Shown: one piece after another, positions 28,508-34,033 of the stretch
How the letters are laid out: each line of letters starts with the position of its first letter
Position numbering within the stretch: the first letter of the stretch is position 1
From: Escherichia coli
Lineage (GTDB): Bacteria > Pseudomonadota > Gammaproteobacteria > Enterobacterales > Enterobacteriaceae
NCBI RefSeq assembly: GCF_030013595.1
Contig: NZ_CP122768.1
Length of the DNA: 64,000 nucleotides
Strand: one strand, 5' to 3'
Program-made: the position numbers and the translations under genes
The notes under the pieces: model-generated
Told to the model about the DNA's origin: nothing
The model's database searches: none
Seen by the model: only the letters and a program-made list of their open reading frames with translations

Positions 28508-28914
28508 GTGAAAAGGTGGTGTTCAGTCAACTGAGCCGTAAATTTATTGATGAGAACGATGCCACGCCCGCCGAGGCGCAGCAGGTGGTCTATTACAGCC
28601 TGGCGATTGGTCACCACCTTGGGGTTATCGATTGCCTGGAAGCGGCGCTCACCTGTCCGTGGGATGAATATCTGGCATGGATTGCCACTCTGGAGGCGGG
28701 CAGCGAAGCCCGCCGCAAAATGGAAGGCGTGCCGAAATATGGTGAGATTGTCATCGACATTAACCATGTGCCGATGCTGGCCAACGCATTCGATAAAGCC
28801 CGGGCAGCGCAAACTTCGCAGCAGAAGGAATGGAGTACAATGCTGTTAAGTATGCTGCATGATATTCATCAGGAAAACGCCATCTATTTGATGGTGAGGA
28901 GATTGCGTGACTGA
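28504..28914 (+). CDS. hycH: Formate hydrogenlyase maturation protein HycH
   Basis: 136-aa ORF; 4-bp overlap with hycG. Confidence 0.92.
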
Positions 28915-29377
28915 CGTTTTACTCTGTGTTGGCAATAGCATGATGGGCGATGATGGCGCAGGCCCGCTACTGGCGGAAAAGTGCGCCGCCGCGCCGAAAG
29001 GTCACTGGGTGGTGATTGACGGCGGTAGTGCACCGGAAAACGACATTGTCGCTATTCGCGAACTGCGCCCGACACGACTGCTGATTGTCGACGCCACGGA
29101 TATGGGGCTAAACCCCGGCGAGATCCGCATCATCGATCCGGATGATATCGCCGAGATGTTTATGATGACTACCCATAACATGCCGTTGAACTACCTTATC
29201 GACCAGTTAAAAGAAGACATTGGCGAAGTGATTTTCCTCGGCATCCAGCCGGATATCGTCGGCTTTTACTACCCGATGACCCAGCCGATTAAAGATGCGG
29301 TAGAAACCGTTTATCAACGACTGGAAGGCTGGGAAGGGAATGGCGGATTCGCGCAGTTAGCGGTGGAAGAAGAGTAG
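28907..29377 (+). CDS. hycI: Hydrogenase 3 maturation endopeptidase HycI
   Basis: 156-aa [23 protein letters not shown]... Confidence 0.93.
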   Translation: MTDVLLCVGNSMMGDDGAGPLLAEKCAAAPKGHWVVIDGGSAPENDIVAIRELRPTRLLIVDATDMGLNPGEIRIIDPDDIAEMFMMTTHNMPLNYLIDQLKEDIGEVIFLGIQPDIVGFYYPMTQPIKDAVETVYQRLEGWEGNGGFAQLAVEEE

Positions 29378-29401
29378 TTTTTCAGTAAGGAATTCAGGGG
29401 A

Positions 29402-30175
29402 TTGAACATCAGAACAGGGATGTGCGCTTTTTTATTGAGCTTAGTGCTGCCTGCACAGGCCACCAGCTTTACCGAATATCTGCCGATGAGTGACAGCGAA
29501 TACGCGCAAAAGCGGGCGCTGAAACCTCTCCTGACCATGCCTTATGATGCCGAGCAAAACTGGCATTTTAGAAAAGTCGGCGTTGCTGGCGTGACGCTTG
29601 AAAAGATGCCAAATGATGATAGTGAATGGCAATTGAACGGTAAAGATCGCGCCGGTAAATCCTGGTCTGTGCCTGTGGGGGTGCTGCAAAATATGGCGGG
29701 TAATGCGCAACTTTACCGTGCCGATCTTGATCGTAACGGCATTCAGGATCTAGTTATCTGGCGGGGTATTTCAGGAAATGGTCTGGCACCTAACGCGTTT
29801 TTGATTCTGATGACCTTTAATCAGCAAGGTCGCCCGTGTGTTTTTCAGTCCGATGGTTTTTATACCGCAAGTGAAACTGGCATTGATGATTTGCTGGATT
29901 TACAAAGGAATGGCCACACGCAATTGCTGGATATGCAGTTTGATTCCGGTTACTGGATAACCAGTCTGTATCAGGTAAAAGACGCCAAATGGCAGCGTGT
30001 TCACGGCTGGTTTGGCAAGTTAAGCTATCCCGCGCTCACGCGTTTTACTTATACCCCCAACCGTAAACTCGTCCTCAAACCCATCGCCGGGCGCGACCCG
30101 CAATCGGAAGATCTGGCGCTGACGCAGCGTTGCTTGATAAAGGGGGATGTGCTTTATGGGGTGAATCAGAACTGA
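29402..30175 (+). CDS. Uncharacterised predicted secreted protein (~257 aa) with N-terminal signal peptide and two Asp-rich D-x-D/Q-x-N-G loops
   Basis: n-region with Arg, hydrophobic core CAFLLSLVL, AQA|TS cleavage site; motifs ADLDRNGIQDLVIW and LDLQRNGHTQLLD; start ambiguous between TTG 29402 and ATG 29420; only 24 bp after the hycI stop with no terminator. Confidence 0.6.
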   Translation: MNIRTGMCAFLLSLVLPAQATSFTEYLPMSDSEYAQKRALKPLLTMPYDAEQNWHFRKVGVAGVTLEKMPNDDSEWQLNGKDRAGKSWSVPVGVLQNMAGNAQLYRADLDRNGIQDLVIWRGISGNGLAPNAFLILMTFNQQGRPCVFQSDGFYTASETGIDDLLDLQRNGHTQLLDMQFDSGYWITSLYQVKDAKWQRVHGWFGKLSYPALTRFTYTPNRKLVLKPIAGRDPQSEDLALTQRCLIKGDVLYGVNQN

Positions 30176-30237
30176 CTTTTTGCAGAGTGGCTATGTGGAT
30201 TTTGGGGGTAATTATATAGCGTACAAGTGTTTACATA

Positions 30238-30266
30238 TTGTGAACTTTGATTTGATGAGCTATAGT
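30238..30266 (+). promoter_or_regulatory. Candidate sigma-70 promoter for the HigBA-like pair (-35 ttgtga, 17-bp spacer, -10 tatagt)
   Basis: Hexamers in an AT-rich spacer ~70 bp upstream of the toxin ATG. Confidence 0.4.
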
Positions 30267-30336
30267 TTCCGAACACATAAGGATAGAACTCGCAGATGTG
30301 GCTGTTTACTTACTATAAGGAAGTTAAAACTTAAAA

Positions 30337-30648
30337 ATGCACATCATTTCTAAAGCGCCATTTGAAGAGTGTGCGCGCAAATATCCTAACGACGCTCTGG
30401 CTCTACACTCATTGTATCGGGTTATTAAGGAAACGGATTTTTCTACACCAGAAGAAATGCGAACGGCGTTTCCCAACCTCGACAATTTTAGATATCGCAA
30501 CAAATGGTACGTTCTGGATGTCGGCGGGAACAATCTTAGGGTTATTGCCTACATAAACTTTGTTAATAAGCGGTTCTTTGTGAAGCACATAACGAATCAC
30601 GCAGAGTATGACAAACTGACACGTTACTACAGAGAGAACAAAGAATGA
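30337..30648 (+). CDS. HigB-family type II toxin (RelE/ParE-fold mRNA interferase), 103 aa
   Basis: MHIISKAPFEECARKYP...FPNLDNFRYRNKWYVLDVGGNNLRVIAYI... resembles HigB/YgjN-type toxins; toxin gene precedes the antitoxin with a 4-bp ATGA overlap. Confidence 0.8.
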   Translation: MHIISKAPFEECARKYPNDALALHSLYRVIKETDFSTPEEMRTAFPNLDNFRYRNKWYVLDVGGNNLRVIAYINFVNKRFFVKHITNHAEYDKLTRYYRENKE

Positions 30649-31064
30649 CTGCTAATGCTGCACGCGCTGTTAAAGCAACAAGAGAACTGGTCAATGCAGT
30701 CCCCTTTCTGGGAGGTAGTGACTCAGAAGATGATTATCGTGAAGCACTGGAACTGGTCGAATATTTGATTGAAGAAGATGACACCAATCCACTTATCGAC
30801 TTTCTGGCGAGCCGCATTGCAGAGTATGAAAGCAACAACGAAAAGTTTGCAGAGTTCGACAAAGCCGTTGCTGCAATGCCGGTTGGCGTGGCGTTACTTC
30901 GTACGCTGATTGATCAACATAATCTGACCTACGCGGATTTGAAGAACGAAATCGGCTCTAAATCCCTGGTCAGTCAGATTTTGTCTGGGCAACGATCCCT
31001 GACGATATCCCACATTAAGGCACTTTCAGCCCGATTTGGTGTTAAGCCGGAATGGTTTCTTTGA
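30645..31064 (+). CDS. HigA-family antitoxin (XRE-type HTH at the C-terminus), 139 aa
   Basis: ...GSKSLVSQILSGQRSLTISHIKALSARFGV... HTH segment; translationally coupled to the upstream toxin. Confidence 0.8.
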   Translation: MTANAARAVKATRELVNAVPFLGGSDSEDDYREALELVEYLIEEDDTNPLIDFLASRIAEYESNNEKFAEFDKAVAAMPVGVALLRTLIDQHNLTYADLKNEIGSKSLVSQILSGQRSLTISHIKALSARFGVKPEWFL

Positions 31065-31090
31065 TTTTGACTGATGCCAAACCCAAGATT

Positions 31091-31120
31091 GCCCGATGCG
31101 CAACGCTTATCGGGCTTTCT
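31091..31120. terminator. Bidirectional hairpin terminator between the HigA-like gene and convergent ascB
   Basis: Stem gcccgat/atcgggc (31091-31115) followed by tttctt; A-rich on the opposite side. Confidence 0.6.
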
Positions 31121-31142
31121 TGGTTCGTGCGACGGTAGTTAC

Positions 31143-34033
<2,891 letters not shown>

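Follow-up and report, generated by a model that had tools for sequence, protein, structure and literature searches.

Toxin-antitoxin loci of the higBA type are defined by a gene order in which the toxin comes first (PMC2814082). In E. coli K-12 the toxin HigB (YgjN) is a translation-dependent mRNA interferase, cutting mRNA only when it is translated (PMC2814082), whereas the Salmonella toxin SehA (STM4031) is reported to have no RNase activity, to bind the double-stranded-RNA-binding domain of RNase III and to block rRNA maturation (PMC12817084). The SehA antitoxin, SehB (STM4030), combines an N-terminal half for dimerization and toxin binding with a C-terminal Xre helix-turn-helix (HTH) half (PMC12817084, PMC7160566), and autorepression has been described for it (PMC7160566). 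A further relative, the three-gene system PD-lambda-2, comprises a HigB-like protein, an Xre-peptidase fusion and a P4-antitoxin-like protein (Vassallo et al. 2022; PMC9519451). Here we analyze a higBA pair and the gene that precedes it, hyp, in a window of E. coli DNA (the whole stretch examined, 64,000 nt of assembly GCF_030013595.1, contig NZ_CP122768.1; all coordinates are those of the window). Our reading, to which we give a probability of about 0.7, is that the locus combines two independent elements: hyp, an ancestral gene at the tail of the formate hydrogenlyase (hyc) operon that was lost in K-12, and an inserted, SehA-like higBA cassette.

The interval extends from the hycI stop at 29377 to the ascB stop at 31143, with ascB on the minus strand and convergent with the hyc side. 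Three intact plus-strand open reading frames (hyp, higB and higA) lie between them, none disrupted, as an initial annotation of the window had proposed. The features are as follows.

29402 (TTG) or 29420 (ATG, the RefSeq start) to 30175, plus strand: hyp, 257 aa, or 251 aa from the ATG.
29417 to 29425, no strand: left copy of the 9-bp direct repeat GGGATGTGC, from a repeat search and the K-12 spacer alignment; join of the K-12-type hyp deletion.
30144 to 30152, no strand: right copy of GGGATGTGC, from the same search and alignment.
30171 to 30175 and 31070 to 31074: ACTGA, 5-bp flanks at the cassette ends.
30176 to 31074, plus strand: higBA cassette, 899 bp (promoter region, both genes and a short tail), flanked by the hyp stop and the terminator.
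30227 to 30266, plus strand: promoter-like site (TTGTGA-17-TATAGT at 30238-30266) and probable HigA operator (inverted repeat GTTTACAtatTGTGAAC at 30229-30245).
30337 to 30648, plus strand: higB, a 103-aa SehA-type toxin of the HigB_toxin family (PF09907).
30645 to 31064, plus strand: higA, a 139-aa antitoxin and repressor with a toxin-binding and dimerization N-half and an HTH_3 C-half.
31083 to 31123, no strand: terminator hairpin between the convergent hyc(-hyp) and asc units; conserved, ancestral and outside the cassette.

Synteny across the family identifies hyp as an ancestral enterobacterial gene that follows hycI. Homology searches, among them a scan of the genome collection with a 9-sequence alignment as query, recovered orthologues of 61-89% identity behind hycI in other Enterobacteriaceae and in E. 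coli E69. E. albertii hyp is 88-89% identical and stands in the order hycI-hyp-higB-higA-DUF4259-hydN (loci L011 and L012) or, in the type strain (L018), hycI-hyp-hydN; the latter order recurs in E. whittamii (L016, 86%). In E69 (L017, 84%) and Phytobacter diazotrophicus (L019, 63%) the order is hycI-hyp-ascB, and in Salmonella enterica (L009, 70%) it is hycI-hyp-hydN-hypF, with neither a toxin-antitoxin pair nor an asc operon. Klebsiella spallanzanii (L010/L020, 61-62%) has hycI-symE-hyp-parD-parE-symE-ascB.

The K-12 locus, in turn, carries the scar of this gene. K-12-like genomes have only a 158-bp spacer between hycI and ascB and lack all three genes, in line with the near-adjacency that the initial annotation had stated. 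The first 30 bases of that spacer correspond to window positions 29378-29423, the ribosome-binding region and start codon of hyp, the next 32 bases to 30144-30175, its last codons and stop, and the remainder aligns from 31071 onward. The join falls at GGGATGT, inside the 9-bp direct repeat GGGATGTGC. Because both ends of hyp are present in the spacer and joined at the repeat, the alignment identifies K-12 as a strain that lost hyp by deletion between the 9-bp repeats, the spacer being a deletion scar and not an empty site. The sequence further indicates that the starting point of the deletion was a locus like that of E69, with the terminator hairpin immediately behind the hyp stop. Together with K-12, about half of E. 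coli lost hyp through this kind of deletion.

Substitution patterns mark hyp as a real gene under purifying selection that evolves fast. Against seven diverged alleles, the ratio of non-synonymous to synonymous substitution rates (dN/dS) is 0.17-0.26, on 28-47 non-synonymous and 36-50 synonymous differences, and dN is 0.05-0.086, versus 0.000-0.015 for hycG, hycH and hycI. Several observations concern the hyp alleles themselves. Those at window positions 29420-30175 and in L017, L031 and L032 differ by up to 12-16% in DNA (dS 0.26-0.39), while adjacent higA alleles differ by at most 5% in all but five genomes; some alleles labelled E. coli are as distant from the window allele as that of E. 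whittamii, suggesting old allelic lineages or recombination at hyp. In E. albertii NBRC 107761 (L018, 6231-6243) hyp is in two overlapping pieces in different frames and looks like a frameshifted pseudogene. The AlphaFold database (AFDB) entry A0A633HV03, a 343-aa Salmonella 'Hydrogenase 3 maturation protease', matches hyp over 188 residues and looks like a HycI-hyp fusion call, from a frameshift or from read-through of the short hycI-hyp gap.

The higBA pair has a different history. In E69 and E. whittamii the junction reads ...GTGAATCAGAACTGA/TGGCAAAC...hairpin; in the window 30176-31074 come between the two halves, and in-silico removal of these bases restores the uninterrupted junction. 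Besides higB and higA, the cassette has an upstream region of its own (161 bp) and a tail of 10 bp. GC content is 0.569 in the hyc genes, 0.495 in hyp, 0.428 in the cassette and 0.516 in ascB; the flanks of the cassette lie at 0.50-0.57, and in 300-bp windows the toxin-antitoxin part measures 0.39-0.43, so its AT-richness, at first judged by eye, is borne out. Relatives of the toxin are found on mobile DNA: 1,040 plasmid records carry a homologue, the best at 76-78% amino-acid identity, and the one plasmid homologue inspected (L036, K. aerogenes) adjoins IncFII repA. A homologue is found at 76% in Cronobacter phage JK004 and at 68% in Salmonella lambdoid prophages, there next to the cI/cro region. 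The absence of the cassette from the Salmonella and Phytobacter loci, its low GC content and its relatives on mobile DNA favor insertion over excision. The cassette, of mobile origin, is thus an insertion in the Escherichia lineage, as the outgroups argue. One point weighs against this order of events: strictly, E69 and E. whittamii might also owe their uninterrupted junctions to exact excision between the ACTGA repeats.

The terminator hairpin beyond the cassette is not part of the insertion. It folds at -24.9 kcal/mol (z = -3.7), so the terminator that the initial annotation had assigned to the inserted DNA is real as a hairpin, but it is ancestral and common to K-12, E69 and E. whittamii. 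An Rfam scan of 28800-31400 returned no RNA family at E <= 1. At the insertion site we found no integrase, transposase, insertion sequence (IS) open reading frame or tRNA, and a repeat scan showed nothing relevant beyond the 5-bp ACTGA; the whole interval as a genomic island was rejected for want of an integrase, IS or tRNA. At the locus L004, which has higBA without hyp, the hycI stop and higB are 166 bp apart (879-1044), and this stretch differs from the window, with which it shares only an operator-like 19-mer and the ribosome-binding region. The divergence sets in 2 bp past the hycI stop, there is no hyp scar, and the locus looks like a second, older or separately acquired cassette allele.

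Distribution counts over 5,426 complete E. coli genomes show that the genes come and go separately. All three occur together in 747 genomes. Full-length hyp is present in 1,462 (27%), and in about 837 others it is cut down to the first 182 or 69 bases; higA is found in 2,508 (46%), single-copy, chromosomal and full length in every match; higB is full length in 1,091, with another 581 keeping only about its last 33 bases. These frequencies do not fit the strain-specific module that had been proposed. Nor do they fit a cargo gene and an addiction module acting as one functional unit, since the two parts occur independently: about 344 E. coli genomes have higBA without hyp, and Salmonella, E69 and E. 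whittamii have hyp without the cassette.

The same survey exposes decay of the toxin. Beyond the window arrangement, the locus exists as hyp plus higA with 30199-30609 deleted (L003), as a 62-aa hyp remnant plus higA with 29584-30615 deleted (L005, L006), as higBA without hyp (L004), as hyp alone (E69, L017) and without either element (the K-12-like L002, and L008). At least two independent deletions have removed higB, and both also removed the cassette promoter; higA in such strains could therefore be transcribed only from upstream, which would mean the hyc promoter. In total, 1,417 genomes carry higA without full-length higB. Relative to the window allele, higA dN/dS is 0.02-0.15, including three sampled higB-less strains whose values rest on 1-3 non-synonymous changes. 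Taken together, higB has been deleted repeatedly across E. coli while higA stayed intact, and the antitoxin usually outlives the toxin.

By family, gene order and the HTH antitoxin, the pair is assigned to the type II HigBA toxin-antitoxin systems, for which growth arrest and its neutralization are predicted. The assignment made in the initial annotation holds: the toxin matches Pfam PF09907 (HigB_toxin) at 1.2e-22 and PDB 5IFG chain A (K-12 HigB) at 1.8e-21, and the antitoxin matches 5IFG chain B (K-12 HigA) at 2.6e-35 over residues 9-138, with Pfam HTH_3 at residues 85-138 (7.9e-9). The toxin gene comes first and overlaps higA at ATGA. RefSeq already names the toxin as HigB-family, so the pair is not of an undescribed kind; the locus of E. 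coli HCP5S3_I2, 99.9% identical to that of the window, is annotated as 'hypothetical protein', 'type II toxin-antitoxin system HigB family toxin' and 'helix-turn-helix domain-containing protein'. We regard the window pair as a new, SehA-like and uncharacterized member of a known family, which RefSeq annotation recognizes at that level.

For comparison with SehAB we used the STM4031/STM4030 orthologues from a Salmonella Infantis contig annotated with LT2 tags. Salmonella toxin homologues of 66-69% identity were rejected as SehA since they are prophage-borne, and the true STM4031 orthologue was found instead. Over its full 103 residues the window toxin aligns to SehA without a gap at 56.3% identity, against 36.9% to K-12 HigB; the antitoxin is 45% identical to SehB and 47% to K-12 HigA. 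With SehAB the pair shares toxin-first order, toxin length and the two-part antitoxin plan. It differs in site, the Salmonella genes lying by fdhE, sehCD and yiiD and the window pair behind hyp at the hyc operon, and in antitoxin length (139 aa here, a reported 142 aa in SehB; PMC7160566). With K-12 HigBA (YgjN/YgjM; PDB 5IFG, 6KML) it shares Pfam families, gene order and fold-level homology; the K-12 pair occupies another locus and is a paralogue, not the same system.

The upstream region of the cassette accommodates the proposed promoter, a promoter-like region lying 5' of higB within 30176-30336. Its sigma-70-like element, TTGTGA-17-TATAGT at 30238-30266, was one of 5 sites in a scan in which 3.4 were expected, so that it carries no significance by itself. 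More informative is an inverted repeat lying across the -35 hexamer, GTTTACAtatTGTGAAC at 30229-30245. All 19 bases of the segment 30227-30245 recur unchanged in the L004 allele, the rest of whose upstream region is very different, and the near-identical motifs GTTTACATCTTGTGAAC and GTTTACATCTTGTCAAC lie upstream of plasmid and prophage homologues. Hence, the inverted repeat is the probable HigA operator, a putative assignment that fits autorepression of the kind described for SehB.

We turn to the protein encoded by hyp. The N-terminus is signal-peptide-like across the family (in the window protein, MCAFLLSLVLPAQA|TS), in keeping with the secreted protein that had been proposed. No match was found in Pfam (even at E <= 10), NCBIfam, PHROGs, PADLOC or PDB sequences, and with a hyp profile PDB yielded nothing beyond XAC2610 at E = 1.6 and sub-threshold matches of 21 residues to the FG-GAP motif of integrin alpha-V. 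An exhaustive search recovered 255 cluster representatives at E <= 0.001, mostly proteins of 330-360 aa from soil and freshwater bacteria. Window hyp aligns to the N-terminal ~240 residues of these relatives and lacks their C-terminal domain of about 100 aa (alignment columns ~400-576), which ends in a conserved ...CxPExxWA and is absent from the hyc-linked E. coli, Salmonella and Klebsiella versions; Leminorella richardii has a long form of the family at 47% identity. Within the family D108, D110, G113 and D116 are nearly invariant in the motif ADLDxNGxxD, and a second motif reads DLLDLDxDG. These motifs, whose window counterparts are ADLDRNGIQD and LLDLQRNGH, resemble FG-GAP calcium sites. 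Matches of the family to Pfam FG-GAP/FG-GAP_3 reached E <= 0.001 in 4 of 59 and E <= 0.1 in 22 of 59; hyp itself gave no significant match to these repeats, the window protein having no Pfam match at E <= 10. From these features hyp is predicted to be a periplasmic protein of an unnamed family with FG-GAP/VCBS-like calcium-site motifs.

An AlphaFold2 model of hyp is confident (predicted local distance difference test, pLDDT, 92; predicted template modelling score, pTM, 0.87) and almost entirely beta. It most resembles PliI, X-Tfi and Tsi1, weakly; Foldseek gave no match to PDB at E <= 0.001, and against AFDB50 it returned only uncharacterized 'periplasmic or exported' and 'VCBS repeat' proteins, including E. 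coli 55989 B7LED0 at 99% identity. XAC2610, PliI-Ah and Tsi1 share one beta-propeller-like fold of periplasmic peptidoglycan-hydrolase inhibitors (PMC10933484). On the strength of the model, hyp may be a periplasmic binding or inhibitor protein of the PliI/X-Tfi/Tsi1 type, a tentative lead with the odds against it. Several observations weigh against it. Most members of the family carry the additional C-terminal domain that the enterobacterial form lacks, and no effector or hydrolase gene adjoins hyp in the window or among the neighbors checked at seven distant loci. The distant homologues, in metagenome-assembled genomes and Pseudomonas, lie among the housekeeping genes fruK, ugd, argG, MTAP, purA and ndk with no conserved partner (three metagenome contigs were too short to show context), whereas X-Tfi and Tsi1 immunity proteins are encoded beside a cognate effector. 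PliI-type lysozyme inhibitors are usually stand-alone genes; the lack of an adjacent effector therefore does not exclude that subtype.

Expression of hyp probably depends on the operon in front of it. No terminator-like site is predicted in the 24-42 nt gap between hycI and hyp, and at uninterrupted sites the hairpin follows hyp, which together suggest that transcripts from the hyc promoter run on into hyp, the final gene of the unit. It counts against this view that co-transcription is deduced only from the lack of a predicted terminator.

Alternatives to this account concern the locus as a whole and each of its parts. That the 1.8 kb form one strain-specific insertion, a cargo protein with an addiction or defense module, is the reading the initial annotation had preferred; K-12 does lack all three genes, and the GC content of the interval is below that of the hyc genes. 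We consider it very improbable. In at least five other species, among them members of Salmonella, Klebsiella, Phytobacter and Escherichia, hyp stands behind hycI with or without a toxin-antitoxin pair, its two ends are kept in the K-12 spacer, and the cassette junctions at 30176 and 31074 exclude it, so that only the 899-bp higBA was inserted; the two elements are found apart in hundreds of genomes, and the site has no integrase, IS or tRNA. For the toxin, the alternative is that it acts like K-12 HigB, entering the ribosomal A site and cleaving translated mRNA, with RNase III not involved. The two proteins share a Pfam family and a fold, and five residues, Y53, K56, H88, Y91 and T95, are common to the window toxin, SehA and K-12 HigB. 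These belong to ten positions mutated in SehA (Y53, R54, K56, D61, H88, Y91, K93, T95, Y97 and Y98), eight of which are needed for toxicity, six of the eight in an extra C-terminal helix (PMC12817084). All ten are identical in the window toxin, including the helix (HAEYDKLT-YYR-NKE), versus five of ten in K-12 HigB; K-12 HigB departs from SehA and the window toxin at D61, K93, Y97 and Y98, all required for SehA toxicity, and at R54, which SehA can spare. Since the toxin is SehA-like including the whole C-terminal helix, and nearer to SehA in overall identity, we lean towards the SehA mechanism and regard the K-12 type, which SehA's lack of RNase activity also speaks against, as the distinctly less likely of the two. 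Against this preference stand the mRNA interferase activity of a toxin in the same Pfam family, the fact that 56% identity does not prove the same target, and the literature on SehA itself: the mechanism comes from one study (PMC12817084), and an earlier SehAB paper (PMC3868539) is marked retracted.

What the pair does for the cell could also be read differently, and either toxin mechanism would be compatible with it: the pair might serve mainly in anti-phage abortive infection, or orphan HigA as an anti-addiction factor against plasmid and prophage toxins, in place of a stress or persistence module. HigB and HigA match the PADLOC profiles PD-Lambda-2_A and PD-Lambda-2_B at 1.9e-15 and 3.8e-14, close relatives sit on plasmids and prophages, 1,417 genomes keep higA without full-length higB, with low higA dN/dS in the three such strains sampled, and in its HTH half HigA has 81-88% identity with the versions on plasmids and prophages, upstream of which the operator motif recurs. 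Yet the toxin-binding N-half of HigA is only 61-66% identical to those versions, and the dN/dS values carry the small counts given above. Membership in PD-lambda-2 was rejected: HigA (139 aa) covers only positions 9-115 of the 402-position PD-Lambda-2_B profile, there is no Xre-peptidase fusion, and no third gene precedes the terminator, whereas the PD-lambda-2B fusion is itself toxic and the third gene required (PMC9519451), leaving the PADLOC matches as distant homology only. We therefore hold an anti-phage or anti-addiction role to be doubtful, although orphan HigA may have an anti-addiction or cross-regulatory function. For hyp, the alternative to an enzyme inhibitor is an accessory factor of formate hydrogenlyase or a lectin-like carbohydrate-binding protein. 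K-12 is the strain in which hyc has been studied, and it lacks hyp, which makes a role in hydrogenase-3 unlikely. The catalytic side of formate hydrogenlyase faces the cytoplasm, and a secreted protein has no evident role there; in addition, homologues outside Enterobacteriaceae have no hydrogenase genes in the 4-6 neighboring open reading frames checked per locus. This alternative is improbable, more so than the inhibitor reading.

Anatomy, synteny, the deletion and insertion junctions, family membership and distribution are shown by the sequences, whereas co-transcription, the operator, the toxin target and the function of hyp are inferred. On this basis the locus would work and would have formed as follows. 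Read from the hyc promoter, hyp would yield an exported, beta-rich protein with two DxDxNGxxD-type motifs, which might block a peptidoglycan hydrolase through an exposed loop; deletion between the 9-bp repeats accounts for its loss in K-12 and about half of E. coli. The mobile 899-bp higBA entered the Escherichia lineage between the hyp stop and the terminator. HigA would bind and neutralize HigB and probably repress the operon at the inverted repeat over the -35 hexamer, while free HigB would stop growth, by the SehA mechanism through binding of RNase III and a block of rRNA maturation.

A bolder version, which we offer as speculation with the odds well against it, is that hyp founds an unrecognized family of periplasmic, calcium-binding PliI/X-Tfi-like inhibitors, read through from the formate-induced hyc operon as a shield against hydrolases or lysozyme during fermentative growth in the gut, and that, separately, orphan HigA, present in about a quarter of E. 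coli, acts in anti-addiction against plasmid or prophage SehA-like toxins. If this were true, an arms race with the enzymes that it inhibits would explain why hyp evolves so fast, at roughly ten times the dN of the hyc genes.

Some features of the surroundings vary as well. The asc operon is absent in some E. coli and E. albertii, where higA and hydN are separated by a DUF4259 gene of 142-145 aa on the opposite strand (L006, 5122-5559; L007, 6155-6583; L011, 6737-7165); about 62 bp of the ascB 3' end (window 31138-31199, 87% identity) are left nearer hydN in L006 and L007. A REP-like element, GTAGGCCGGATAAGGCGTTCACGCCGCATCCGGCA, lies between the terminator hairpin and the ascB stop in K-12 (L002, ~990-1030) and E69 (L017, 6840-6875) and is absent from the window. 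In K. spallanzanii (L010, 4422-6814) SymE-like genes flank hyp and a ParD/ParE pair directly follows it, and toxin-antitoxin modules seem to have landed repeatedly in the gap between hycI and asc.

Our literature search, for higBA with hycI, the RefSeq protein accessions and STM2844, found no paper on this locus. Neither element is a new kind of system, and both are common in E. coli. The comparison corrects the apparent direction of the insertion: K-12 is the derived state, having lost a gene that several enterobacterial genera keep behind hycI. The lost gene encodes a protein that is well folded in its model, conserved and of unknown function, with a testable lead. About one fifth of E. coli genomes carry an uncharacterized close relative of SehA and, as the reported target of SehA, RNase III, differs from that of K-12 HigB, the label 'mRNA interferase HigB' may be wrong for such toxins. 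Finally, with several independent toxin deletions and higA full length in all 2,508 carriers, the locus offers a clean natural series of toxin-antitoxin decay in which ideas about orphan antitoxins can be tested.

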